A program made the translations under genes and the position numbers. This document shows, piece by piece, positions 31,559 through 45,881 of a DNA stretch of 64,000 nucleotides (position 1 is the stretch's first letter; every line of letters begins with the position of its first letter). The DNA is taken from contig OZ243916.1 of assembly GCA_965213675.1 (NCBI GenBank), forward strand, positions 1,184,001 through 1,248,000. Direction: 5' to 3'. This DNA is from an uncultured Candidatus Binatia bacterium. Lineage in GTDB: Bacteria; Desulfobacterota; Binatia; UBA9968; JAJDTQ01. Below the pieces are notes generated by a model. It was not told where the DNA came from and did not search any database. It saw only the letters and a program-made list of their open reading frames with translations.

Positions 31559-32500
31559 TCAGTAGCCACCATTCTCCCTGAAATCAGCGATCTGGAGCGC
31601 GGTAGGCGAGACCAACGTTCCCCACGGCACGACATCGAGATGTGCGAGGTCATTGCGAACCCTATGGAGCCAGTCTATGCGTTTCAACTCGCCCTCGAGA
31701 CTCCTGATCCTTCTCGCTTGGGCGGCCATGTCCCCAATTTCGAGCTTTTCCAGATCCTGAATTTGCTGCCCGTCCTTTCGGAGGTGCGGCAGTTGCCAAG
31801 TGTCCCGATGCTCATCCAGAAGACGACGGCGTTCACGTTCGACCAGTGGGAACAGAACGGCAACCTCCGCTGCCCAGATACGCTCGCGGGAGTGGTCTCC
31901 ATCAGCAAGTATCCGACTGACGGATTGCTCGGCGAGGCTCGCGGCGCGGAGCAAGTCAGCGCCGGCAAGTTCGGCGATGAGCGCACTCTTGAGCGTGACG
32001 TGTGCAGGATTGTGCCCGGAACGGCGACTGCGGCGCTCGAGGAGTACACGACTGTCTGACGCAGTTATGAAATCTTGCCATAGGCGTCGTCGAAGCCGCT
32101 TTTCTTCGCCGTATCCTTCGGCACAAGCTGTCTGCGACGCGATACAAATACGGGGCATTTCCGTGAGCTCGGCACACTCGTGGACATGGCGAATCCATTT
32201 TGCCACCGTTTCTTCGTCCGTGGCTTCCACCCACAGAACGAGCGCCCCAGTATCATGCTCTCTGGAGCGCTTCGCCATGGACTGTATGGGAGTCAGTATG
32301 CCCGCTTCTGCAGATCTCACGGCAGACCAACGCCCGATACCCTTACGTTTAAGTAGGTCGGCGAGTTCCACCGCGAACAAATCTCTCGCATCATCCGGGA
32401 GCCCTGCGAGGACGGCGCTACGGTTGACGAGATCTTCAACCATAGTCCACAGGAAGTCCACTGGGCCCGGCAAGTTGGCCCAACCACGTGGGAGACTCAT
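31559..32500 (-). CDS. Hypothetical protein with C-terminal RxxxxH (HEPN-like) motif
   Basis: 313-aa ORF, ATGA-coupled to the upstream ATPase; WLHRVRNDLAHL. Confidence 0.7.
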   Translation of the reverse strand: MSLPRGWANLPGPVDFLWTMVEDLVNRSAVLAGLPDDARDLFAVELADLLKRKGIGRWSAVRSAEAGILTPIQSMAKRSREHDTGALVLWVEATDEETVAKWIRHVHECAELTEMPRICIASQTACAEGYGEEKRLRRRLWQDFITASDSRVLLERRSRRSGHNPAHVTLKSALIAELAGADLLRAASLAEQSVSRILADGDHSRERIWAAEVAVLFPLVERERRRLLDEHRDTWQLPHLRKDGQQIQDLEKLEIGDMAAQARRIRSLEGELKRIDWLHRVRNDLAHLDVVPWGTLVSPTALQIADFRENGGY

Positions 32501-35500
32501 TCGCTGAAGTAGGCAGTGAGGCCCTTCGCATAAGCCGCATCGAGACGGTAGCCGTCACCATGCCTGCACACGATGCCGAGACGATCGGCCCATCGGACAA
32601 TCTTGACCACGTCTGTTACGGAGACCGGCCTGTCCACAGCTCCAGACATTTCCGACAATTCATCGACGCTCATCGTTTCCTGAGCATCGTAAAACTCGGA
32701 CAAGACGTGAAGCACAGGTTCTGCCTCCCGAACGTCGAGAACGTCGGATACTATGTTCTCCTCCTGAAGGGCAATATCGGCCGCTTCCGCCACTGAGGAT
32801 TGGCATTCCGATTCGGCGGCCAGCTCAACCACGACGGGCCACAAGGAGTCGACCGGGTTTTCCAGGTCGGCAAAAGCCTGCGCCTCCAGGTCTCTCAACC
32901 ATGAGTATGCAAAGCCCCTGGCACAAGGTCCGAGCCACACTTCCCAAACAGTCGCCCTTCCCTTGCGCCTTGACCGTCCCCGGTTCATCCACTCCCAGGC
33001 TTCGGCGGGACCACCGAGGAGCACAGGCCGGACGATTCGTTTACTGGAACTAAGTGCTCCAATGAATCCAAGCACCGTATCCAGCAAGTGAGAATTCCAT
33101 CCGCTACGTATATCCACGAGAACGAAATGAACACCGGCCTCGCGCCTTCGTGACGCAACTTGAAGTTGCGACCTGACAGACTCCACGTCCGGTATCTCCT
33201 TCACGACGAGGGGCTCTACCGATCGCCCCTTTCCCTCGGCCGCCTGAATAAGGGAATCCTGCACCCGATCGAGGTTAAGGCCAGCGAGTCGTGTGCCGAA
33301 TAACAGCGCTACCCACGGCTTGGGGGAGAGTAGTTGGTCTTCCTGTTCGGCCGTGAGCACAGACAATCGCGGTCCGTGGACATCAATCGTGCGGCGGAAC
33401 TGGGATGGATCGAAGACCAGGTGCGGCTCCCGATCCTTGGCATCATTGAACCGCCGCTCAATCTCGTCCTCGTTACCGAGTAACATACGCAAGTTGCGTG
33501 TACGAATGGCGAACCCTTCATCACCCACTTTTCGAAGTATACCGAGGCCAACCATCTCTTCGAGAAGAACTTCAAAAGCCAAATGAGTCCGATCGGAATC
33601 GAACGCTTGAGGCCATTCACTCAATGCTGTTTCTCGGATCGCATCGATCGACATGTCACCTAGTCCCATGCGGTCGTCATGGAAACTATTCCATGCAATG
33701 AGATAAGCGAGGAATTCGTACCGGGAATCGAGATGTATCGTCCACGAGAACAAATTCCGGATCCGATCGCGCGTTTCCTTGGAGTGGAATGCGTGGTCAA
33801 TCTGTTCCGGTAAGACTATGAAGGGGGGACCGAGCGCGTCATCGTTCTCACGCAGAACCAGTAACAGATCCTTGCAGAATTGCTGAGCGAGAGCTGGATA
33901 GTAATTCGTCTCCGCGGCGATCCGTATAACCGAATCCCTCGATTGGAAGCGATGACCGAGCGCCTCAAACGGCGCACGTATCAGATTCTCGATCTCGGCA
34001 CCATCGGTCTCGGGCAGCATTGGTCCGATGCGGACCGGAGCGCCCAAATGCGCCAACGGTGTATTAGGATCTCGAGCCGCTCGTTGAACGTTGTGGAGCC
34101 CGGCGAACACGACCTTGAATCGCCTGTCCGTGTCTTCCATCAACTGCTTGATCTGCTCAAGCACATGGTAGGGCGGTTTTTGCAGCCGATCTGCATCTAG
34201 AAAGTCGTCGGCTTCGTCCACCAGAAACAATATCCGACGAACCGGGTCGCCTTTGAGCCACTGCTGCACGCTCGCTTGGAACCTGTCATAGCGAACCGTT
34301 CCGTCCGCGACGACTTCATGCTCTGCGAGTTGCTTGGTGAACAAGCGCCATAGCTCATCGGTCGGTAGCCTCTGTCCGATGCCCGACGCCTTAAGATTGA
34401 GAACAAGTACCAACTGATCTGGTGCCCGAGACTCGTACTCGCGCGCAATGTGTCTGAAGAGAGCAGTCTTGCCGAGTCTCCGCCCGCCATAGACGAAATG
34501 AGTCATGTCTCCGCCGGACACGGCAAGGATCTTGTCGCGCTCCTCCTTGCGCCCGAAGAACATTTCGGGCGGAACCTCGACCGCGTCCGGATCAAACGGT
34601 TGAGTGAATGTAAAAGCCGAAGCGCAATCGAAAAAGGCGCCTTGTCGCCGGCCGGGCAGCGCGGAAAGAAAGGCAACGAGCGCCTCGTCGAGCACTAACG
34701 TCGGTTGGCTGTCGCCGACCCTGAACTCGCGCGCGAGCTCGCGGCGCGTGGCAACATCCAGGACACTCAAAAAAAGAACTATATTGGGCCGGTGTTCGTC
34801 CGCGGTCCATGCCCCCGCTTCCCGAACGATCGCCTCGTGGGAGTCGCGGCCGCGGATCGTGAAAAGCCGGTACCGTCCTCCGGCGCGTGAACCGAAAACC
34901 GGAAGTTGTGCGATGTTGCGGTCCGTAATTGAAGAGCTACGTAGATCAAATACTGCTTCTCCGTCATTCGTCCGGGCATCGGTCAAGTCCACACGTGCTC
35001 TCGCGAAACCGAGCGCATTCACAACTTCGCCCAACTTCTCGTTGGTCGTCGCGCCCGTGTAAAGTGCCTTCCATGCTTCAAGAAGTCGGACGCCATCGCG
35101 GGCCGAATCGGGCGAAAGAGTCGTCGCGTCGATACATTCCACGCGGTTGCGGTCATTGACCGCCTGACGGACATCCCCAAGCGCGTCTGGCCTGTCGGCC
35201 CGGAACGCACCATATGCTTCAACAAATTCCGGGAAAAACCGATCAAGGGGACGATCTGCCTCCACATCGGATCTTGGCAGCGAATCGCCCCCAGCTATCC
35301 GGTTGATGAAATCATCTGCGACTTGAAAACGGTCGGCGTTGATGAGACCTTCGATTCGTACCCTGTTCTCCTGAGACGTATCAAGATCCTCCAGCCGTGT
35401 CTGAATCTTTGTGCGAAAGCGTTCGTGACTGCTGTCGATCTCCCTCTCGATTGCGTCAAGGTCATCAAACAACGTCCTAAACTCGCCAATCTCCGATGAA

Positions 35501-38250
35501 TCTGGAGGGGTCAGCCGGTCGCCGAGCCGGTCATGGTCCTCTGCGGACAGGATACCTAAAGCATAGGATACGTCGAGCCGGTTTCTCGTCTTGTCATGCC
35601 TGCTCTTGAGACGCTCCGAGGTAACCGAGCGCTCTTTCTCGACTCTGGTTTTGACACGGGCGATATCCCTTTCATCGAGAAGATTGCCTCGTTCTACGTA
35701 TTCCAGGACAAACTCGGCTGCCCGAAAGTCGCCATACTGAACCCGTTCGACAATGCCACGCTCGAAGTCAAGACGATCCTGCTCGGCAAAACGTAGCAGG
35801 ACGCTGGTCGAAGGCAGCGTTTCGTGAATAAGCCCGCTTACACCGTCCGATCGAACGCTGGAGTCGGCGAACAGATCGCCATTCAGTAAATCCTGCAATC
35901 GGAGACGCGTGGAGGGTGCCTCGCTTCCCGCGTTTTCGAACATTTCGACGTAGCGCTCCACCAACCTTCTAGCTTGAAGTGCCGCCCGGGTGTTGAGCGA
36001 GGCGATCTCCTGAATCGCACCTTGGCCTTGGTCATGCACCGCCGAACGTAGTTTTTCCGCCACGGCTATGCTGGATTCTTGCCTTCCGTCTGGCCGCGTT
36101 TGAAGCAGATTGTCCCAACGATCAATGAAACCAACGGCCTCACGGATTTTTTCACGCAAGCGCAATCGTGCATTCCCGGTGATTTGTTTTGTCCGCGGAG
36201 TGCCCCGTAGGGAGCGATCTACCCTATCTATTTCGTCTTCGCCGTACCGCCGCCAATGTTCAGCAATAGCCTTGACGCCCGCGATATCGATCTTTTTGGC
36301 TGGCGTCGCCAGCAACTTGAACATGCCGCCGATAGAACAGCGTTTCTTCTCTGTCCATTCATCAAGTATCCGGTGCCAGACCTTGGTCGCAGCCCCGAAC
36401 TGTATCTTCGATTGGCGCTCCGCGTCGATCCAGTGCGTCCCTTCCTTCTGAAGGAACTCGGCCCTTTCGGTCCAATCCGCCTCCGGGGAGGCCTCGCCGC
36501 GAAGTAGTTTTGCAGGAAGATGGACACCAACCTGGGAGACTTCCGCCGCGACCTTCACCAATTCCCGCAGGGCCGGCATCCCATCGAAGCCAGTTTCCAG
36601 CGACAACAGCAACTGGGCGATCGGCCAACCCGGAGCGATTTGCGCAGGTATCAACGCCGCACCGGCGGCAAGAGCCAAATAATCTACCCGATCGGCCTTC
36701 GGCCTTCGAACCGACCCAGAGCAATTCATCAGGTTAGCGACAAGCGAATCCCGCTCATCGGTCACATGGCTACTCGCAATGAAGGTGATTGTTTCTGGTC
36801 CCGGTAGCGCGTCTGGGGCAGAGAGAGCAAGATGGTAGGCTACCCCAAAGCGATCGTGCTCGAGTGCTGTCACTATCGCCGCCTCGATTTCCCCGGGCGA
36901 AACAACTCCGTCGCCGCGGGAGGTCGTCGTTCGATTACTTTCTCCTTTAAGATGTGCCGAGATCGCATCGCCCGAAGACGCAACGTGCGCGCCATCGATC
37001 GTTGCAGCCTCGTCGAGAACGTCCATTTCCTCGTCCGTAGCCGGTTCCAGTTCGGCGTCATCAACTGGCGATACGACATCGGTTTGTAGTTCTGATGCGA
37101 CCTCGTTCGCATCAAGGAAGGCGCCTTCCGATGCCTCCTCGCTCCTCACCTCCGGCCCTACTTCCAAGGTGTGTCTCGGCGCATGGCCCTTACGTTGCAA
37201 TTCGAAAAGGGTCGAGTTGATGACCGCGTGTGCCCTTTCCCGCTCATCATTAAGCGACGCGAGAGCAGTACCAAGGGAACCCACCAAGAGGTAGTCCTCG
37301 TCCTCGCGTGCCTGATCCAGGGCTTCACGTTTCTCATTGAAAGTAACGTCGGTAACGAGCGCGGCCTCGAAGAGATGGAGAATTTCTTCTAAGTGCTGTT
37401 GATCGATGTTACAGGTGTCAGCCCAAGCTTCGAGCCTTCCAAAAGTGGTCGCCAGTTCTTGGGCGTCGGCGAGCACCTCCGAATAGGATTCCCGCCAAGC
37501 CGAAATCCGCGATTTCTGTTGCTGGATGTTACGGCGCTGAGCCTCACGGGACTCAGCGATCTTGATCAATTGGCCGACGTGTTGGCCAAGGGTCTGGAGC
37601 AAATCCGGTTCCAGGCGTCCAGCGCTCAAGGTCGCCGCTCTCGCCTGAATCTTCTCGATAAGTGCCGTGGCTTCAATGCGTTCGTTATCGTCTGTTGGGT
37701 GCTGCTCTTCAGATCGGTCGCTGTCGAAATGAAGGCCCGCACGGACATCTTTCAGAAAGGTCTCTGCGTCCGGGTGTCTTTCGAGTGCGTCGAGAAGGTA
37801 GTCTGCAGAATCGAACAGGACGCTTTGCGCCCAGACGAATTCGGCGAATCGGTCCCATTTACCTGTTTGGGCAAGCGCACTCCCGTAGTCATCGGCATTC
37901 GGCCTCGAGATCAAGTGGTCGACGCCCAACTCGGTGGAATTCTGCGCATTTCCCAGGCAGGCCTTTCTCAGGCGACGAGGAAGATCCGCCCGCCCATGCC
38001 GTTTGCGCTTCCCTCTTTCGAAGACTTCCTTTGCGCTCTCGTAGTTGGTTCGACCTTCCGCCGTACTGAGCAGGACATGCAAGCGTGTGTAGAAATCGCC
38101 AGTCGACACGGTCTTCTTCCAAGTGGAAGATGACACGTGTTCCAACGCCTCTGCAAAGGCTCGCTCCTGAGTCTTGGCAAACTGCAGAACCTCTTTGAGC
38201 CGTCCGGGCGTCAAGGTGGACGGAAGTCCGTCGCCTAGAAGATACGACAT
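32497..38250 (-). CDS. Giant (1917 aa) P-loop NTPase, STAND-like, probably defence-related
   Basis: MFFGRKEE, Walker A GGRRLGKT, Walker B LFLVDEAD, VVFAGLHNVQR; long helical-looking N-terminus; lower GC. Confidence 0.8.
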   Translation of the reverse strand: MSYLLGDGLPSTLTPGRLKEVLQFAKTQERAFAEALEHVSSSTWKKTVSTGDFYTRLHVLLSTAEGRTNYESAKEVFERGKRKRHGRADLPRRLRKACLGNAQNSTELGVDHLISRPNADDYGSALAQTGKWDRFAEFVWAQSVLFDSADYLLDALERHPDAETFLKDVRAGLHFDSDRSEEQHPTDDNERIEATALIEKIQARAATLSAGRLEPDLLQTLGQHVGQLIKIAESREAQRRNIQQQKSRISAWRESYSEVLADAQELATTFGRLEAWADTCNIDQQHLEEILHLFEAALVTDVTFNEKREALDQAREDEDYLLVGSLGTALASLNDERERAHAVINSTLFELQRKGHAPRHTLEVGPEVRSEEASEGAFLDANEVASELQTDVVSPVDDAELEPATDEEMDVLDEAATIDGAHVASSGDAISAHLKGESNRTTTSRGDGVVSPGEIEAAIVTALEHDRFGVAYHLALSAPDALPGPETITFIASSHVTDERDSLVANLMNCSGSVRRPKADRVDYLALAAGAALIPAQIAPGWPIAQLLLSLETGFDGMPALRELVKVAAEVSQVGVHLPAKLLRGEASPEADWTERAEFLQKEGTHWIDAERQSKIQFGAATKVWHRILDEWTEKKRCSIGGMFKLLATPAKKIDIAGVKAIAEHWRRYGEDEIDRVDRSLRGTPRTKQITGNARLRLREKIREAVGFIDRWDNLLQTRPDGRQESSIAVAEKLRSAVHDQGQGAIQEIASLNTRAALQARRLVERYVEMFENAGSEAPSTRLRLQDLLNGDLFADSSVRSDGVSGLIHETLPSTSVLLRFAEQDRLDFERGIVERVQYGDFRAAEFVLEYVERGNLLDERDIARVKTRVEKERSVTSERLKSRHDKTRNRLDVSYALGILSAEDHDRLGDRLTPPDSSEIGEFRTLFDDLDAIEREIDSSHERFRTKIQTRLEDLDTSQENRVRIEGLINADRFQVADDFINRIAGGDSLPRSDVEADRPLDRFFPEFVEAYGAFRADRPDALGDVRQAVNDRNRVECIDATTLSPDSARDGVRLLEAWKALYTGATTNEKLGEVVNALGFARARVDLTDARTNDGEAVFDLRSSSITDRNIAQLPVFGSRAGGRYRLFTIRGRDSHEAIVREAGAWTADEHRPNIVLFLSVLDVATRRELAREFRVGDSQPTLVLDEALVAFLSALPGRRQGAFFDCASAFTFTQPFDPDAVEVPPEMFFGRKEERDKILAVSGGDMTHFVYGGRRLGKTALFRHIAREYESRAPDQLVLVLNLKASGIGQRLPTDELWRLFTKQLAEHEVVADGTVRYDRFQASVQQWLKGDPVRRILFLVDEADDFLDADRLQKPPYHVLEQIKQLMEDTDRRFKVVFAGLHNVQRAARDPNTPLAHLGAPVRIGPMLPETDGAEIENLIRAPFEALGHRFQSRDSVIRIAAETNYYPALAQQFCKDLLLVLRENDDALGPPFIVLPEQIDHAFHSKETRDRIRNLFSWTIHLDSRYEFLAYLIAWNSFHDDRMGLGDMSIDAIRETALSEWPQAFDSDRTHLAFEVLLEEMVGLGILRKVGDEGFAIRTRNLRMLLGNEDEIERRFNDAKDREPHLVFDPSQFRRTIDVHGPRLSVLTAEQEDQLLSPKPWVALLFGTRLAGLNLDRVQDSLIQAAEGKGRSVEPLVVKEIPDVESVRSQLQVASRRREAGVHFVLVDIRSGWNSHLLDTVLGFIGALSSSKRIVRPVLLGGPAEAWEWMNRGRSRRKGRATVWEVWLGPCARGFAYSWLRDLEAQAFADLENPVDSLWPVVVELAAESECQSSVAEAADIALQEENIVSDVLDVREAEPVLHVLSEFYDAQETMSVDELSEMSGAVDRPVSVTDVVKIVRWADRLGIVCRHGDGYRLDAAYAKGLTAYFSE

Positions 38251-38390
38251 TGTAATGACACTAGCGATAATTTCTCTTTTGGGTTGGTCTACATGTAGAT
38301 GTTCCTTTATGTCAAATGGTTGACACTTGGTCTTCCCCGGGTTTGGCGGACATCTGATAAGGGGCGATGATGGCCTTGGAGGTGAGGACC

Positions 38391-38678
38391 ATGACTCGGA
38401 CGAGACGGAGGTATTCGAAGGAGTTGAAGCTCGAAACGGTCAAACTGTTCAAGGAAGGACCGCGCTTGGTCGGAGAGGTCGCCCGTGATCTGGACTTGAC
38501 GGAATCGGCGGTTCGCAATTGGGTGCGGCAGTTCGACGTGGACGCTGGTGTGCGCGAGGGGGTGAGCACGGGCGAGCTCGAGGAGGTACGCCAGTTGCGG
38601 TCGGAGAACCGGCAGCTACGGATGGAGCGCGACATCCTAAAAAAAGCGACGGCCTTCTTCGCCAAGGAATCGATGTGA
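38391..38678 (+). CDS. IS3 family transposase OrfA
   Basis: RRRYSKELKLETVKL...VARDLDL..SAVRNWV...ERDILKKATAFFAKE. Confidence 0.9.
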   Translation: MTRTRRRYSKELKLETVKLFKEGPRLVGEVARDLDLTESAVRNWVRQFDVDAGVREGVSTGELEEVRQLRSENRQLRMERDILKKATAFFAKESM

Positions 38679-38883
38679 GGTCCGCGTTCATCGAGGCGGA
38701 GAAGGCCAGATTTCCCGTGACCATGATGTGCCGGCTGCTTGAGGTCTCTCGAAGCGGCTTCTACGCCTCGCGTGCTCTCACGACGCCCACGCGAAGCGTA
38801 GAAGCCGCTTCGAGAAACCTCAAGCAGCCGGCACATCATGGTCACGGGAAATCTGGCCTTCTCCGCCTCGATGAACGCGAACC

Positions 38884-39171
38884 TCACATCGATTCCTTGG
38901 CGAAGAAGGCCCTCGCTTTTTTTAGGATGTCGCGCTCCATCCGTAGCTGCCGGTTCTCCGTCCGCAGCCGGCGTAGCTCATCGAGTTCCCTCGTGCTCAC
39001 GCCCTCACGCACACCAGCGTCCACGTCGAACTGGCGCACCCAATTGCGAACCGCCGATTCCGTCAAGTCCAGACCACGCGCGACCTCTCCGATCGAGCGC
39101 GGTCCTTCCTTGACCAGCTTCACCGTTTCCTGCTTGAACTCCTTCGAAAACTTCCGTCTCTTCCCTGTCAT
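38884..39171 (-). CDS. IS3 family transposase OrfA (second, diverged copy)
   Basis: KRRKFSKEFKQETVKL...ERDILKKARAFFAKE. Confidence 0.9.
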   Translation of the reverse strand: MTGKRRKFSKEFKQETVKLVKEGPRSIGEVARGLDLTESAVRNWVRQFDVDAGVREGVSTRELDELRRLRTENRQLRMERDILKKARAFFAKESM

Positions 39172-39334
39172 GGTCGTCACATCCGAGGCCATCATCGCCT
39201 CTTATCAGATGTCCGCCAAACCCCGGTAAGACCACTCTGTAAGGGCACGTTGGACGTCTCTTGCGAAGCTCGGTTGCGCGAGTCGCGAATCTCGCGCGGA
39301 CAACCGTACGGCGTGTGAGATCACCGGAAGCAGA

Positions 39335-39772
39335 TCACGCGGCCTCGCCGACTGTCACGCTCACACGCTTCCCCAACCGGCGCAATGCGCGGTCGATGGT
39401 GGCTGCCTTCGTGACATGATCCGGATTCAGCATGCGCTGCACCTCGCTCTCGGCAACATTGAGGTCGTGGGCGAGACGGCTTTGCGACATGCCAGCCTTA
39501 CGGAACGCCTCGTAGAGGGCCGCCTTCAGCGCAATCGGCACCGGGGGAACAACAATCGGCCGACGCCTAGTCGCGCGCGATGGCTTCGGCAGGTCCCTAC
39601 CCTCACGCATCGTAGCCGCGATCAACTCTCGAAGCAGGTCACGGGCTTCGACCAGCGCCTCGTCGCGAGTCGCGCCGTCCGTTGCGCCCCACCCGAAATC
39701 CGGAAACGCGACGATATAACGGCCGTCCTGGTCGCGCTCGATCTCGGCGGGAAAGTTGTAGGTGTCCGACAT
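39335..39772 (-). CDS. hicB: HicB antitoxin with C-terminal HTH
   Basis: YIVAFPDF..GATDG.TRDEAL, DLPKPS, SQSRLAHDL. Confidence 0.88.
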   Translation of the reverse strand: MSDTYNFPAEIERDQDGRYIVAFPDFGWGATDGATRDEALVEARDLLRELIAATMREGRDLPKPSRATRRRPIVVPPVPIALKAALYEAFRKAGMSQSRLAHDLNVAESEVQRMLNPDHVTKAATIDRALRRLGKRVSVTVGEAA

Positions 39773-39814
39773 CGGTTCAGTTCTCCATATTCGGGCAGCT
39801 CCAGTACTCACCCA

Positions 39815-40027
39815 CTAGAATTCGTCCCTGTCGATCCCGAGGTCGGCAAGCATCTTGGCGAGCAGTCCCTTGCCGATGTCCTTCTTTCGATCCTTGACGC
39901 CAGTCTTCCGATCTCCCGCGTAGAGCGTTCCGTGCGATCCCAGCCCTTCCGACACCACGAAGCGAATCTCCAAATTCCGGGCCCTTGCCCATTGGCGGAC
40001 CCTGGTGATGAACTGCCGCCCGTTCAT
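39815..40027 (-). CDS. hicA: HicA mRNA interferase toxin
   Basis: 70 aa with GLGSHG and KDIGKGLLAKMLADLGI; AGGAG RBS; upstream of hicB. Confidence 0.85.
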   Translation of the reverse strand: MNGRQFITRVRQWARARNLEIRFVVSEGLGSHGTLYAGDRKTGVKDRKKDIGKGLLAKMLADLGIDRDEF

Positions 40028-40059
40028 CTACTCCTAGTGTAAGCCGCCGCCCGCGACTG

Positions 40060-40363
40060 TCAAGAATGGCTGATGAGCCCGCCTCAGTGGCCAGGCTCCA
40101 TGCAATACTCCTCCTCGATGTCGCCGAGCCCAATGGACCAAGTCCGACTTCATGCGGATGGCGAACGAGCCGATGGTATGGCTGGCTCCATGGTGTCCAA
40201 CGTTGATGGTCATCCGGCCGCTCGCACGGTAGCCACACCCACGGCCGGAGCCGACAAACGGCGTCGTTGTGCGCGAAGTCCCCAGAATCCATCTCCAGCG
40301 CGCCTTGAGACGAACCATTATGTCGGTCTGCTCTTCGACTTCCTGGTTGTTGATGAGCAGCAT
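40060..40363 (-). pseudogene. Degraded 5' part of an ornithine cyclodeaminase/mu-crystallin-like gene
   Basis: Pieces in different frames: MLLINNQEVEE, DFAHNDAV..R..VWLPCERPDD..RW, FAIRMKSDLVHW, EEEYCMEPG; family recognised from memory. Confidence 0.5.
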
Positions 40364-40451
40364 GCAGCGTATCTTCCAGTGAAGGATTGGTAAAGCAAGG
40401 CCCGGGACCGGGTAAGACCAGACTACCACGGATGACAAGGAGGAGGACCGC

Positions 40452-40844
40452 ATGTTCATGAGAGCTGTCCATCCCGGCGAGGTCTTGAAAGGCGAGTTGG
40501 AAGAGTTGAGGATCACTCCGACGGAATTCGCGCGGCAGATCGACGTCCCCCCAAACCGGGTTAGCCAGATTGTCGCCGGGAAGCGTTCGGTCGCGGGCGA
40601 CACCGCGCTACGCTTCGGTCACTGGTTCGGCAGCGATCCCCAGTTCTGGCTCAACCTTCAGACCCAGTACGACTTGCTTCAGGCCGACAGGGAGACCGGC
40701 GCCGAGATACGTCATCTGCCGACCAAGGCGAGCGTTCCAGGAAAGGGTGTCGGTCCAGGGATCGCATGCCCAGAGAAGGAGCGCGAGCGCGGATTGGCGG
40801 AAGCTGAGGGGCGGTGTTTCGGACAGACACGTCCAGGCGGCTGA
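40452..40844 (+). CDS. higA: HigA-family antitoxin (orphan)
   Basis: VHPGEVLKGEL, EFARQIDVPPNRVSQIVAGKR, TALRF, FWLNLQTQYDL; AGGAGG RBS. Confidence 0.88.
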   Translation: MFMRAVHPGEVLKGELEELRITPTEFARQIDVPPNRVSQIVAGKRSVAGDTALRFGHWFGSDPQFWLNLQTQYDLLQADRETGAEIRHLPTKASVPGKGVGPGIACPEKERERGLAEAEGRCFGQTRPGG

Positions 40845-41296: not shown

Positions 41297-41325
41297 TTGA
41301 CATGCGGTGGCGGCAAAGGTAAAGT
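41297..41325 (+). promoter_or_regulatory. Sigma70-type promoter upstream of the NYN gene
   Basis: TTGACA (41297-41302), 17-bp spacer, TAAAGT (41320-41325). Confidence 0.75.
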
Positions 41326-41331
41326 CCGCCC

Positions 41332-41390
41332 GACTAGCTTGCTAACCCCCCCCGGGATCGAGCCGGAAACGGCCCCCGGGGGTTTTTTTT
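41332..41390 (+). ncRNA. Putative short structured leader RNA ending in a terminator-like hairpin and U8
   Basis: Outer stem CCCCCGGG/CCCGGGGG enclosing a GCCG-GAAA-CGGC tetraloop hairpin via an asymmetric loop, then T8, 9 nt before the ATG. Confidence 0.55.
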
Positions 41391-41399
41391 GAGTTCCTT

Positions 41400-42026
41400 A
41401 TGGCGCCAGAACGCGCGGTCCTCTTCATCGACGGAAGCAACTTTTACCATGCCGCCAAGAACATCGGAATCGCCACGGGAGAACTCGACTATCAGAAATT
41501 GGCCGAAAAACTCGTTATGAATCGGCAACTGGCCGGTATCCGATACTATGTCGGACAGGTTTCCGGCAATCTCTCCCGACGCTCGTCTCAAGAAAAGTTT
41601 CTGAGCAGGATCCAGCGCCAAGGCGTAGAGGTTTTCAAGGGCCGAATCGAGCGCAGGATAGTCCCCCCGAACGACAATCCATTGATTGGGAGGCTAAAGG
41701 ACGTAGTCGCGACCCATAAGTCCGATCTCCGTGGGCCAATTCTCGTCGAACTTGAAGCCTTGTGCAAAATGTCCGTCCCTCAGTACACCGAGAAGCGGGT
41801 CGATGTTTCAATCGCCGTGGACATGGTTACAATGGCGCACGGCGGACAATACGATATAGCGTATCTTCTCTCGGCAGATGGGGATTTCGTACCGGCAGTC
41901 GAAACCGTCAAGAAATCGGACAAAAGGGTATTCGCGGCTTCTCCGGCCTCCGGGTACGAGCTTGGAAGAGCCGTCGATAACTTCATTCCACTCAGACGGG
42001 ACTGGTTTTTTGGCTTGTCCGTATAA
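41400..42026 (+). CDS. NYN/LabA-DUF88 (PIN-fold) ribonuclease
   Basis: LFIDGSNFY, IRYY, EKRVDVSIAVDM, LLSADGDFVPAV, VDNFI. Confidence 0.92.
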   Translation: MAPERAVLFIDGSNFYHAAKNIGIATGELDYQKLAEKLVMNRQLAGIRYYVGQVSGNLSRRSSQEKFLSRIQRQGVEVFKGRIERRIVPPNDNPLIGRLKDVVATHKSDLRGPILVELEALCKMSVPQYTEKRVDVSIAVDMVTMAHGGQYDIAYLLSADGDFVPAVETVKKSDKRVFAASPASGYELGRAVDNFIPLRRDWFFGLSV

Positions 42027-42318: not shown

Positions 42319-43239
42319 TCAATCGACGCCCCAGTCAAGCATCTTCTCGTGGCGCCAGGATGACGTTCTGCCATCCGGATACATCGTTGGAATTTCGGCC
42401 TGGTATCTTGATTTTCGGCCTGTCGGATCTTCTTCGGCAAAGACCGCGACCACGCGGGCTTCGACAGAACGCCGCCTTGGCGCATCCTCCCGTGTCGTTG
42501 GATCGTTGAAGGCGGTGTGAAAGGTGACCCGGGAGGCCAGATCCTTGATGCGGGAATCGTATTGCCTGAAGATCATCGCCTCGTTCGGCTCCATTCGTGG
42601 AAAGTAATGCCAGCTCTGGGCCATGTCATGAACAAGGCGGTACAATACCACGCGGGTGCCCGGCTCGGTCAGACGCCATCCCTCGGAACTGACCATGTCA
42701 TCGGCCGAGATGGTCGTATGGTCGCACAAGGCAAGGGGTTTTGACTCGATTGCCTGCAGGGGGTCTATGCTGCGCCAGACAGTGTAGACGCCGAAGTGGT
42801 GGCCATCAGGTATGTCGAGCACATCCTCGACATAGGGAGTCAGATCCGCGTGGGGCGTCTCCGCATAGGTTCCGGCGCCGTTGGGCGAAATTGGCACACC
42901 GGTGCGAAACTCGTGCTGCATGGTCCGTGCACAAAGGCATCCGGTTGCCGCCATGACCAGTTCCGCGCACTGGTCGTAGAATCGGGAAACGACATCGTCA
43001 TGATTGCCGTAATCCATATCAATCGGCGCATGTACCAGCTCGAACCCCATGCGCCCGATGGTGGCGGCCGGTTCGAGGGCACGCGCATCGTGAACGCGGA
43101 TCGGCTTGACAACGAGCATTTCCGAATGATCGGCCCCATCACCGTGGCATGGCAGCCGGAACCCCCGGTATCTCGGATTCACGAAGGCACTTTCCGAAAC
43201 AACAAACGGCGTATCGGGAAACAATGGCAGAGTTCTCAT
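42319..43239 (-). CDS. CmcJ/NvfI/AsaB-family non-heme iron oxygenase-like protein
   Basis: DARAL..GFELV, HAD, VWRSI, PLALCD, WHYFPRM, TFHTAF.DP, RRSVEAR. Confidence 0.8.
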   Translation of the reverse strand: MRTLPLFPDTPFVVSESAFVNPRYRGFRLPCHGDGADHSEMLVVKPIRVHDARALEPAATIGRMGFELVHAPIDMDYGNHDDVVSRFYDQCAELVMAATGCLCARTMQHEFRTGVPISPNGAGTYAETPHADLTPYVEDVLDIPDGHHFGVYTVWRSIDPLQAIESKPLALCDHTTISADDMVSSEGWRLTEPGTRVVLYRLVHDMAQSWHYFPRMEPNEAMIFRQYDSRIKDLASRVTFHTAFNDPTTREDAPRRRSVEARVVAVFAEEDPTGRKSRYQAEIPTMYPDGRTSSWRHEKMLDWGVD

Positions 43240-43391
43240 GGCGCTGACCCTGTCAAACTGTCTGGCGCAAGGCCAAGTCACGAAACTGGCCTTCTGCCGC
43301 CAGCAATTCGTCGTAGCTTCCGGTCTGCACAGATGTCAGATCCGGGCCAATGATGCCACGGTGCAATCCGGCGGCAAATCCCGCTGCCACA

Positions 43392-44906
43392 TCATGACGT
43401 CGGCAGGTCCTGGAATTCGGGCGGTTGTGCCTTGCAGTAATCGTCAATGAATTGCTGGTGGTCCGGAAACTCGTTCACCTGCTTGTCGACATTTTCGTGG
43501 ATGTCGGCCAGGTATTGCCCCAGTTCCTCGTCGCTCATCGCATTGGCAATCGGGTGATACTGTTCCGGAATCAGACCCTGACCCAGCATGACCTGTGCCC
43601 ATGACGTGGTGCCGAATAGTTCCGCCTGGTTCCACGCTATCCGGCCCGTTTGACGAAACAACTTGATCCGGTGTTCGAGGGAGTCGGGAATGTTCATGGT
43701 CCGGCACTGCCGCCAGAACAGCGTATCCGAGCGGTTGGTCACATGGTAGTGCAGGATGATGAAATCCCGGATATTGTCGATTTCAAGCTGCATGTGGGAA
43801 TTGAACTCTGCGATCCCGGCTTCGCGAATTCCGTTATCGGGGAACATCTGGACCAAGCGGGTGATGCCACGCTGAATGAGGTGGATGCTGGTCGATTCGA
43901 GCGGTTCGATGAAACCGGATGCCAGTCCCACGGCAACGCAGTTCTTGTGCCAGTACCTGTGCCTCTGGCCGGCTCTGAAACGGATCAGCCGCGGCTCTCC
44001 AAGCACCCGACCCTGCACATTGTCGAGCAGCCGCGCCCTTGCCTCGTCGTCGGACCAGTGCCGGGAGGAGAACACCATGCCGTTCCCGACCCGGTGCTGC
44101 AGCGGAATGCGCCATTGCCACCCCGCTTCATGGGCTATCGAGCGGGTATATGGTTGCGCGGCTCCCGACGATTCGGTTGGCACCGCGATTGCGCGGTCAC
44201 AGGGCAACCAGTCGCCATAATCATCGAAGCCGACGTCGAGGGTTTGCCCGATCAGGAGCCCGCGAAAGCCAGTGCAGTCGATGAACAGGTCCCCGGTGAC
44301 GAGTTGCCCGGATTGCAGGCGCAGACCGGTTATGAATCCACTGGCCGGATCCTGTTCCACCTGCTCAATGCGTCCTTCATGCCGGACAACGCCAAGCTCC
44401 TCGGCAATACCTCGCAGGAATTGTCCGTACAGTCCGGCATCAATATGATAGGCGTAGTTCAGAACGTTGTGCAGGCTGATTGCAAACCGGTTGCGCAGCG
44501 ACGCCGTTGTTTCCGGACAATAGTCGCCATAATCCCGGGCCAAGCCCAGCAAATGGCCCCTCAGCCAGTAATGCTGAAAGCCGGCGGTCCAGCGCTCCCT
44601 GCCGACCCACCCGAAGGAATGGAAATAGTCTTCGCCCAGGTCCCGCCAGTTCTCGAACGAAATTCCAAGCTTGAAGGTGCCCTGTACAGCCCGCAGGAAA
44701 TCAGTCTCCCTGACATCCATGTATTCGTGAAAAAGTCGCAGCGGTGGAATCGTTGCTTCACCCACGCCGACAGTACCGATCTCGTCGGATTCGACCAGGG
44801 CAATGTCCAGGGTTTCGCGGAGCTGCCGGGCAAACATTGCCGCAGCCATCCATCCGGCAGTCCCACCGCCGGCGATCACGAGTTTCCTGATTTTCCTATT
44901 GTGCAT
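43392..44906 (-). CDS. Flavin-dependent tryptophan-halogenase-family enzyme
   Basis: GGGTAG, GVGEATIP, catalytic Lys in TFKLGI, YAYH, WQWRIP, FIEPLESTS. Confidence 0.93.
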   Translation of the reverse strand: MHNRKIRKLVIAGGGTAGWMAAAMFARQLRETLDIALVESDEIGTVGVGEATIPPLRLFHEYMDVRETDFLRAVQGTFKLGISFENWRDLGEDYFHSFGWVGRERWTAGFQHYWLRGHLLGLARDYGDYCPETTASLRNRFAISLHNVLNYAYHIDAGLYGQFLRGIAEELGVVRHEGRIEQVEQDPASGFITGLRLQSGQLVTGDLFIDCTGFRGLLIGQTLDVGFDDYGDWLPCDRAIAVPTESSGAAQPYTRSIAHEAGWQWRIPLQHRVGNGMVFSSRHWSDDEARARLLDNVQGRVLGEPRLIRFRAGQRHRYWHKNCVAVGLASGFIEPLESTSIHLIQRGITRLVQMFPDNGIREAGIAEFNSHMQLEIDNIRDFIILHYHVTNRSDTLFWRQCRTMNIPDSLEHRIKLFRQTGRIAWNQAELFGTTSWAQVMLGQGLIPEQYHPIANAMSDEELGQYLADIHENVDKQVNEFPDHQQFIDDYCKAQPPEFQDLPTS

Positions 44907-45325
44907 AACCTGCCTCTGGACGGTCGAGTTGGCGCATTCGCGCCATTGCCGGACCTGGTACAGGGCGGTTCAGTGTGGACAAAATCTGCAGTCTGACATA
45001 CGAGGCATCGACCAGACCCGGAAGTCTGGGACCGGGCAGCATGGGAATGCCGACACATGTGATGCTCAAAATGTCGATTCCGATCTCGAGTTCGGCATCC
45101 GGAGCATGTCAATGCCGATTTCGGCTCTGACGACAAATCAGGGATGACCGGCGGCCCAACGGATCGCCGCAGCCTGACACAAAATTGGCGCGCACCCATG
45201 ACCGGCAGCGCTGGCGGATGGAAGTCCCGCTGGAAGAGACGGCAACTCACCCGAAAGGAATGGTGCAGACTCCAGGCCGGTCTGACCCGGTCGGCATGGA
45301 CAGAGTATCGCGTGCAATGCCCGGT

Positions 45326-45516
45326 TCAACTCAGTCGCGACAATTCGGGAATGGCACCGCTGTCTTCAAGGACATGGATGGCGATGCCGTCCCGAACCGA
45401 AAGCCCGGTTGCGTCCTTGATGGCTGCCTTCGGGTCATTCAGAGCCGGGTGCGGAATTCTCCGTCCTCGTCGGCCCTGGCAAGCGCCTGTGCCTAGATCT
45501 GTGACGGTGAGTTCAT
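45326..45516 (-). pseudogene. Second, inactivated NHLP precursor copy
   Basis: MNSPSQI*AQALARADEDGEFRTRL, 1-nt deletion, NDPKAAIKDATGLSVRDGIAIHVLED, then truncated; upstream TGTTCAGAGAA also duplicated. Confidence 0.85.
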
Positions 45517-45620
45517 GTCCGTTCGCCCTGTTCTCTGAACATTGGCACGACGGCATTGCTTGGCAGGAAGAATGCCTCCGGCAGAAAATCAGCAGATCAC
45601 TGCCGGAGACCCGACAATAC

Positions 45621-45881
45621 TCACCAAGTGTTGATGTCACCAATCCCGCCGGCAACGCCCCTGATTTCCTCATCCGACAGGTTGCGGCCCGCCGGTGGCA
45701 GGACGAGGTGATAGTCGGTGGCGTTGTCTTCAACGACATGAATATTGATGCCGTCCGGAACCGAAAGCCCGGTTGCCTCCTTGATGGCTGCCTTCGGGTC
45801 ATTCAGGAGCCGGGTGCGGAATTCTCCGTCCTCGTCAGCCCTGGCAAGTACCTGCGCCTCGACTTGTGATTGTGTGCTCAT
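45621..45881 (-). CDS. NHLP (nitrile-hydratase-like leader) proteusin precursor; predicted core IGDINTW
   Basis: RADEDGEFRTRLLNDPKAAI, IHVVED, HLVLP, LSDEEIRGVAGG double-glycine leader end; AGGGGG RBS. Confidence 0.92.
   Translation of the reverse strand: MSTQSQVEAQVLARADEDGEFRTRLLNDPKAAIKEATGLSVPDGINIHVVEDNATDYHLVLPPAGRNLSDEEIRGVAGGIGDINTW

Follow-up and report, generated by a model that had tools for sequence, protein, structure and literature searches.

A conserved hairpin RNA encoded ahead of bacterial NYN nuclease genes, with a possible antitoxin-like role

RNA-restrained nucleases and the layout of the NYN locus

In toxin-antitoxin (TA) systems of type III, for example ToxIN, CptIN and TenpIN, the RNA is present in excess and restrains the toxin nuclease, and a tandem repeat array is the defining feature of the RNA antitoxin. 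A different relationship between a structured RNA and a ribonuclease is exemplified by the E. coli genes rne and rnc, which are autoregulated by way of structured 5' leaders. In AbiF, the upstream ncRNA RCd22 is reported to neutralize a toxic RNA-targeting protein in cis as well as in trans, by direct binding (bioRxiv 10.1101/2025.04.15.648962). Stand-alone NYN proteins of ~205 aa, encoded inside defence islands, were described by Payne et al. as HEC-09, a single-gene candidate; in that text the terms 'ncRNA' and 'non-coding' occur 0 times, and the one representative assayed in E. coli with its native promoter region is reported there to give no protection against the phages tried (bioRxiv 10.1101/2024.01.29.577857). 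Finally, the CRISPR-associated NYN protein of Bacteroides fragilis has been reported to be an active, sequence-nonspecific, Mn-dependent ssRNA endonuclease (bioRxiv 10.1101/2024.04.08.588522).

The window, by which we mean the whole stretch of 64,000 nucleotides analysed here, contains on its forward (+) strand an NYN-domain ORF of 208 aa (41400..42026). A consensus scan of the same strand finds a -35 hexamer TTGACA (41297..41302) and, after a 17-nt spacer, a -10 hexamer TAAAGT (41320..41325), which together match 10 of 12 consensus positions and form the putative promoter of both the RNA and the NYN gene. A small RNA of ~58 nt is predicted at 41332..41390 (+), its 5' end being placed from the -10 hexamer and its 3' end corresponding to the U-run. 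It comprises a single-stranded UAA (41343..41345) ahead of a run of C residues, the first three of which (41346-41348), likewise conserved, lie 5' of the outer stem; the 5' arm of that stem, CCCCCGGG (41349..41356), forms 8 bp with the 3' arm, CCCGGGGG (41375..41382). Enclosed between the arms are an asymmetric internal loop of 5 nt, AUCGA (41357..41361), and an inner hairpin GCCG-GAAA-CGGC with a 4-bp stem (41362..41373). The minimum-energy fold and the centroid fold calculated by RNAfold are identical and correspond to this hairpin. It is GC-rich and is directly adjoined on the transcribed strand by a U8 tract (41383..41390), which is the anatomy of an intrinsic terminator, and it is thus predicted to terminate transcription. 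A 9-nt spacer, GAGTTCCTT, separates U8 from the ATG at 41400, and the sole stretch resembling a ribosome-binding site (RBS) is GAG at -9 to -7. The initial annotation had described the promoter, both stems, the loop, U8 and the 9-nt gap, every one of which was found in place, and its remark that the gene has no clear RBS is a fair description.

With type III TA systems this locus shares the order of promoter, structured RNA, intrinsic terminator and read-through endoribonuclease gene, as well as the lack of a protein antitoxin, the occurrence on islands or plasmids, and RNA tandem arrays in relatives (118-nt units in locus L025, 33-nt units in an E. coli plasmid carrying a member of a sister family). 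On the other hand, the nuclease in the window is NYN/PIN-like and not a member of the ToxN/AbiQ, CptN or TenpN groups, its RNA consists of one hairpin, which doubles as the terminator, and forms no repeat array, and in L025 every repeat has its own promoter and terminator. The rne and rnc leaders resemble the element in that a structured leader precedes a ribonuclease gene and could be bound or cut by the gene's own product, but they are not terminator-ended small RNAs with extra copies and do not travel with the gene from one phylum to another. AbiF likewise has a conserved structured RNA just 5' of the gene of an RNA-targeting protein, which in AbiF is toxic; its protein, however, contains Abi_2 and not NYN, and its RNA is also different, the abiF motif having no match here. 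HEC-09 differs in that the window gene lies outside any Hma system and its product matches the HEC-09 profile only partly. The B. fragilis protein is similar as a bacterial NYN with a dedicated RNA (crRNA intermediates), but it belongs to a type III CRISPR locus, where it trims crRNA, and does not have a promoter-hairpin-terminator unit of its own (bioRxiv 10.1101/2024.04.08.588522).

Searches against Rfam 15 returned no match for the window stretch at E <= 1, the abiF motif included, none for seven family-1 loci and the class-2 RNA at E <= 0.1, and none for seven loci of the sister family at E <= 1. In full-text literature searches we did not find NYN linked to an ncRNA as its partner or antitoxin, or to a structured motif upstream of the gene. 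The conserved small RNA coupled to the NYN nuclease is thus apparently undescribed, as the initial annotation had supposed. The pairing itself and the type-III-like layout that it had suggested are also supported, as promoter, hairpin and U-run stay with NYN across phyla and additional promoter-RNA units occur.

Taken by itself, the window does not distinguish the element from chance. The stability of the hairpin is unremarkable in comparison with dinucleotide shuffles (z -1.39; 20 of 200 shuffles are equally stable), and the consensus scan, for which 1.0 +/- 0.9 promoter-like sites would be expected in 3 kb, finds 3. The proof that the element is more than chance is comparative, since the unit precedes 50 of 51 homologous genes.

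Conservation and specificity of the hairpin RNA

The comparison is based on a scan of one genome per prokaryotic species, which yielded 61 loci. Fifty-one of them (L004-L053 and L058) were kept as clear homologues with 36-88% identity, hereafter family 1; L054-L057, which belong to another NYN branch (23-26% identity), and L059-L064, which are short partial matches, were left out. The element was located by inspection of the 160 nt 5' of each gene, together with pattern search, RNAfold and a covariance model, R1, which at E <= 1 recovers 47 of these loci by itself; pattern and fold identify the hairpin in L035, L048 and L058. The sole locus without the hairpin, L050, contains a 5'-truncated NYN copy from which the first 67 codons are missing. 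Hosts of family 1 include Binatia, Thermodesulfobacteriota, Gammaproteobacteria, Nitrospirales, Dehalococcoidia, Acidobacteria, Myxococcota, Gemmatimonadota, Eisenbacteria and Fermentibacteria, and many of their genomes are, according to the sequence records, sponge-associated MAGs.

At almost every locus the order is the same: a TTGACA-type promoter, the hairpin, a U-rich tail on the NYN-sense strand and the start codon, with the hairpin and NYN on the same strand throughout family 1. Under a strict definition (TTGACA with at most one mismatch, a 16-18 nt spacer and TAnnnT, no more than 100 nt upstream of the hairpin) a promoter-like site is present in 24 of 51 loci, compared with 28 of 5000 control windows. 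By eye, several further loci have TTGACA with an imperfect -10. The distance from the end of the hairpin to the position aligned with residue 1 of the protein is 8-52 nt in 46 of 50 loci (median 25.5, range 8-371 nt), so that there appears to be no room for a separate NYN promoter and in most loci the gene would be transcribed by read-through only. The genes 5' of the element, on the other hand, vary: HigA is found in the window, a folate-reductase-like ORF in L003 (by eye) and an integrase in L028, and relatives 87% and 82% identical to the window protein keep the promoter despite different upstream genes. Because of this variation the hairpin can be assigned to the NYN gene and not to the gene that precedes it.

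It is in this light that a more trivial explanation has to be weighed, namely that the hairpin ends transcription of the preceding gene as an ordinary intrinsic terminator, or serves as an insulator, and that the promoter match arose by chance. Such an origin would suit the single-sequence fold and the number of promoter-like sites described above, neither of which stands out. However, the upstream genes change from locus to locus while promoter and hairpin remain with NYN, and the stems exhibit compensatory changes (below); the comparative data already contradict this explanation, which we regard as highly improbable, and the terminator of an upstream gene was accordingly dropped from the candidates. 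On comparative grounds, the hairpin is not an ordinary terminator. The initial annotation had proposed a search for conserved structure upstream of NYN homologues, and that search, the outcome of which is in its favour, now reveals, beyond the presence of the hairpin, both a conserved sequence and compensatory changes.

The RNAs fall into two groups, of which group 1 comprises 26 distinct sequences (proteins 45-88% identical). They share a motif consisting of UAA, 7-8 C, GGG, a variable internal loop with the inner hairpin, CCCC-GGGGG and U residues, and 19 alignment columns are invariant. The UAA (columns T10, A11 and A12 of alignment A2) is present in 26 of 26 sequences. All 8 pairs of the outer stem are formed in 100% of the 26 sequences and 7 of them never vary, so that this nearly invariant stem yields no covariation; its variants are compensatory, with a C-G to U-A exchange in L022, L026 and L027 and an inserted G-C pair in L019. 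In the inner stem, compensatory changes are found in 3 of 4 pairs. Group 2 comprises 22 RNA sequences with a related terminator hairpin, from loci whose proteins are 36-47% identical to that of the window. Here compensatory changes affect 6 of 11 pairs, and 97.9% of the cells are paired as compared with 89.8 +/- 1.0% in shuffles, of which 0 of 500 reach the observed value; if the partner columns are slid by 1-3 positions, the paired cells drop to 24-55%. RNAfold predicts an additional first hairpin, P1, in 22 of 22 group-2 sequences; its sequence is variable and MAFFT leaves it unaligned, and the covariation counts exclude it. Judged from these alignments, selection acts on both the sequence and the structure of the hairpin RNA family. 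A CsrA-type GGA motif in the loops was also considered and ruled out, as the loops are not conserved (by eye).

The specificity of the motif was assessed with model R1. The 4.5-Mb genome from which the window derives has one match at E <= 1 (72.4 bits, E 2.3e-13) among the 150 of 6515 first-look candidates that were scored, and in five other family-1 genomes every one of the 14 matches (E <= 0.01) falls at an NYN locus. Among 100 relatives, matches occur in 21 of 27 genomes of the window's own genus versus 0 of 73 from other genera. Within the genus, five of the matching places are NYN loci, with at least 71 bits (in one of them, L068, the NYN gene is frameshifted), while 20 others, scoring 32-60 bits, have no NYN within 1.5 kb. 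These 20 places belong to a different conserved RNA, located after etfA, in which a hairpin of striking similarity is present. The motif is therefore not confined to NYN, as a nearly identical hairpin forms part of the etfA-linked RNA in 20 loci; outside the window's genus, in the genomes searched, the motif is specific to NYN loci. The window's own genome also has a diverged copy of the etfA-linked RNA.

These data bear on two further explanations. One is that the element acts at the level of DNA, as a palindromic insertion of the MITE or REP type or as a recombination site. It can be argued from the CCCGGG palindromes in both arms and from L028, where an integrase adjoins an NYN gene flanked by two copies of the hairpin. 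Nevertheless, each of the genomes searched has no more than one to five copies, all at NYN loci, and neither target duplications nor dispersed copies were observed, which makes an element of this kind exceedingly improbable; a MITE-like element in particular was ruled out by copy number and linkage to NYN. Moreover, the G-U pairs and the U-run are confined to the NYN-sense strand, and this strand-specificity, shared by the promoters, points to an RNA rather than a DNA element.

The other explanation is that the RNA does not inhibit the nuclease but serves it as substrate or cofactor, or is made by it as a product, in the sense that NYN matures it for other targets, or that the RNA recruits or guides NYN. 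Joint inheritance and conservation of sequence would suit any specific relationship between an RNA and a protein, and the etfA-linked RNA of the genus, with its related hairpin and no NYN, could be another client. However, the sequences of the 5' tail and P1 are variable and form hairpins in their own right, which is not guide-like and led us to discard a guide RNA as a candidate, and the patchy distribution over islands and plasmids is more in keeping with a selfish or defence module than with housekeeping RNA metabolism. We therefore consider a role as substrate, cofactor or product decidedly unlikely.

The NYN protein and its gene neighbourhood

The window protein matches PF01936 over residues 5-198 with 79.9 bits (cut-off 24.2; E 3.5e-22), and among Pfam families NYN is its only match, with no Abi_2. 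Its AF2 model has a pLDDT of 90.3 and contains a helical insert at about residues 85-125; the best matching PDB folds are 2qip (E 1.4e-8) and the NYN domains of MARF1 (5yaa and 6fdl). A search of ~5.8 billion proteins identified 158 relatives at E <= 1e-5, 30 of which were aligned (alignment A1). In these 30 sequences D135, D141, D152, D160 and D162 are invariant and D11 is nearly so, which bears out the earlier statement that the acidic residues of the NYN are intact. According to the model and the alignment, the NYN fold is intact and the acidic residues of the putative active site are conserved. The match to the PADLOC profile HEC-09 (E 8.8e-24) is partial and consists of two stretches, the best of which covers residues 122-184. 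Searches of plasmids (E <= 1e-10) and phages (E <= 1e-6) with family-1 NYN gave zero matches.

A conserved protein partner was sought by all-against-all BLAST of the ORFs in the 51 loci, which returned only NYN and its shadow frames; the largest cluster of other proteins that does not overlap NYN is present in 3 of 51 loci. The claim of the initial annotation that there is no adjacent protein antitoxin can consequently be extended from the window to the whole family. Transposase, integrase, restriction-modification, Abi or TA-type neighbours are found in about 13 of 46 loci, and the others have housekeeping genes nearby. In the window, the upstream region encodes a Fic protein, a 1917-aa AAA_22 protein, inverted IS3-like fragments, a weak HicB-like ORF and HigA, and the downstream region a halogenase/RiPP-like cluster; a CmcJ-like oxidoreductase is also among the neighbours of NYN. 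PADLOC gave only weak matches (E >= 1.7e-4) for 4 other nearby ORFs (32497-40844), and neither Hma nor another multi-gene defence system was recognised around the window NYN. The description of the surroundings as a defence-rich island is thus moderately supported: the weak HicB-like ORF, HigA, Fic, the IS remnants and AAA_22 speak for it, and the lack of a recognised defence system speaks against it.

Stand-alone RNA copies, the sister family and the role of the RNA

More than one copy of the hairpin is found in 7 of 50 loci. In L025, from Nitrospirales, a 118-nt unit is repeated 4.6 times in tandem, each unit consisting of TTGACA-17-TACAAC, the hairpin and U8. In L028 and L036, both from Acidobacteria, a second copy of the hairpin lies downstream of NYN, and in the alignment of these two loci the only stretch still conserved beyond the NYN stop is a TTGACA-17-TAGAAT promoter together with the hairpin. 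Three copies are present in L022, four in L031 and two each in L027 (where one follows NYN) and L045; a promoter-like site precedes most of the copies in L022, L027 and L031, and neither of those in L045.

Such copies are hard to reconcile with a role of the element as a leader only. In that alternative the hairpin-terminator would throttle NYN exclusively in cis, perhaps with feedback from NYN, which would bind or cleave its own leader much as in the autoregulation of rne and rnc, and the short RNA released would arise as a side product. The tight spacing between the hairpin and the start codon suits a cis-acting leader equally well, as do the anatomy of a terminator and the common strand of hairpin and gene in all family-1 loci. 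On the other hand, some of the extra copies (in L028, L036, the L025 array and L022) have promoters of their own and do not stand before NYN, the RNA of the sister family can be convergent with, divergent from or downstream of NYN (below), and the strength of a terminator requires neither an invariant stem sequence nor an invariant UAA. A purely cis-acting leader or attenuator is, in our view, an unlikely but still serious alternative.

In the interpretation that we prefer, the locus would be a complete module of two parts, in which a strong sigma-70-type promoter would drive a small structured RNA with an intrinsic terminator of its own at the end, and the NYN gene, 9 nt past the U-run, would be transcribed solely on terminator read-through, so that the RNA would be in large excess over the nuclease mRNA. 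The RNA would be the cognate ligand of NYN and keep the nuclease in check, acting in trans when free and in cis where it forms the 5' end of the mRNA made by read-through. By analogy with type III TA systems and AbiF, we give about an even chance to this combination of an RNA in excess, NYN expression by read-through and restraint of NYN by the RNA. It presupposes that the RNA would bind the protein and that the nuclease would be toxic, and the module may serve plasmid or island maintenance or phage defence. Several points speak against it: a hairpin of 8+4 bp composed of GC pairs only should be long-lived, whereas classical antitoxins are labile; the window has neither a repeat array nor a ToxN-type fold; and the HEC-09 representative assayed in E. 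coli gave no protection against the phages tried.

Further evidence comes from a sister family of NYN genes. The genome of the window contains another NYN gene (L002), which is frameshifted and likewise comes after a promoter, two hairpins and a U-run; at least 422 relatives of it are found among the species genomes. Sister-family members L114, L149, L180 and L194 match the HEC-09 profile over positions 3-202 of 203 (E 1e-38 to 1e-45). A two-hairpin RNA, represented by covariance model R2, is present in 75 of 81 sources; compensatory changes are found in 11 of its 17 pairs, and 94.4% of the cells are paired as against 80.5% in shuffles. In the window's genome, 3 of 3 R2 matches are directly upstream of NYN paralogues. 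Elsewhere the arrangement is more varied: ten loci have the RNA on the strand opposite to NYN, convergent and abutting the NYN stop in nine of them and divergent in one (L192), and in L157 it lies downstream of NYN on the same strand. This variety of positions beside NYN argues for a partner acting in trans.

It is tempting to speculate that stand-alone bacterial NYNs, HEC-09 included, constitute a large undescribed class of RNA-protein TA or defence modules in which each subfamily is silenced by a cognate RNA, the RNA of the window being the minimal, one-hairpin form and a new type III-like branch with a PIN-like fold. We hold this generalization tentatively, at somewhat below even chances. 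Should the RNA indeed control the nuclease, the NYN/PIN-like fold and at least two new RNA families would join the very short list of RNA antitoxins, and there would be a concrete lead on HEC-09, a candidate without a phenotype in its one test. The RNA motifs, being short, strongly conserved and absent from Rfam 15, are ready markers for annotating such modules.

Control of the nuclease by the RNA, if real, would also account for the presence of NYN genes on genomic islands and on enterobacterial plasmids of 3.5-4.6 kb. Plasmid records with the sister family number 407, and among them are E. coli plasmids of 3.5 and 4.6 kb with hardly any other content. In the 4.6-kb plasmid, an array of 33-nt repeats (2.6 copies by TRF, with additional degenerate units; z -5.9) is followed by a terminator and then by NYN. 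By eye, two further plasmids, from Klebsiella and Xanthomonas, also have a terminator-ended structured stretch ahead of NYN.

Further NYN/RNA loci and placement of the RNA

The window's own genome contains three more NYN genes, which belong to the HEC-09-like family (a sister NYN family, PADLOC candidate HEC-09), and immediately 5' of each of them lies a conserved two-hairpin, terminator-ended RNA. These loci were found at G000:C1:2975957-2976042 (L002/L193, in which the NYN gene is frameshifted), at G000:C1:2645681-2645765 (L194) and, on the minus strand, at G000:C1:550163-550251 (L195). Elsewhere in the family, in a group of loci from Actinobacteria/Chloroflexi-type MAGs (L169, L170, L176, L179, L180, L184, L187, L188 and L191), NYN and the RNA gene are convergently oriented, with the terminator of the RNA adjoining the NYN stop codon; the RNA occupies roughly positions 2100-2230 of the minus strand in these loci, or 1695-1782 in the case of L179. 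In L192 the RNA is divergent from NYN, and in L157 it is found downstream of NYN on the same strand.

The family is also represented on a mobilisable, ColE1-like E. coli plasmid (CP057030.1, 4612 bp), where a tandem hairpin repeat (L197 577-693) is located upstream of the NYN gene. The array comprises 2.6 copies of a 33-nt unit according to TRF, as well as additional degenerate units, and together with a terminator it directly precedes NYN on the 5' side, in a layout strongly resembling that of the ToxI-type array, the RNA antitoxin of the type III system ToxIN.

In L068 (G012:C6), the NYN gene has been split by a frameshift, with the promoter and the hairpin still intact. Locus L135 exhibits three copies of the RNA (629-1496), and downstream of each copy lies either the full NYN gene or a 5' fragment of it, a pattern suggestive of partial duplications in tandem.

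An RNA-like element 3' of etfA

A second conserved RNA-like element was identified in the window's genus on the 3' side of etfA, at 20 loci (L072 1446-1680 and 19 others within L071-L090); in the window's own genome it is found at about 2263050-2263300 of G000:C1 (L091 1394-1628). There, etfA is followed by a TTGACA-17-TAGTAA promoter and a stretch of ~190 nt that holds several hairpins, one of them nearly identical to that preceding the window's NYN gene, including the AUCGA loop. None of the 20 loci has a NYN gene within 1.5 kb of the element, for which no Rfam match was found.

Genes flanking NYN in the window

Upstream of NYN, a 1917-aa protein (32497-38250, minus strand) displays a weak match to AAA_22 (residues 1252-1389, E 7.6e-6), its only reported domain match, and no match to a defence family; it is a large uncharacterised NTPase beside toxin-antitoxin-type genes. 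The latter comprise a HicB-like ORF (39335-39811), whose Pfam match of E 7.6e-5 does not reach the cut-off and which is preceded upstream by a 70-aa ORF (39815-40027) that is HicA-like by eye only, and HigA (40452-40844; TIGR02607, E 9.8e-26), in front of which no intact HigB was found. The interval that separates the HicB-like ORF from the 1917-aa gene contains two near-identical 103-aa ORFs resembling IS3-family orfA fragments (38367-38678, plus strand; 38884-39195, minus strand); they are inverted relative to each other, which suggests a rearranged insertion-sequence remnant.

Directly 3' of NYN, the minus strand (42319-45881) encodes a CmcJ/NvfI-type oxidoreductase at 42319-43281 and a tryptophan halogenase at 43392-44906, as well as at least one ORF of 86 aa, at 45621-45881. 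On visual inspection, this ORF resembles nitrile-hydratase-type leader peptides and ends with a short Trp-containing core; the region may represent a RiPP cluster with halogenation.
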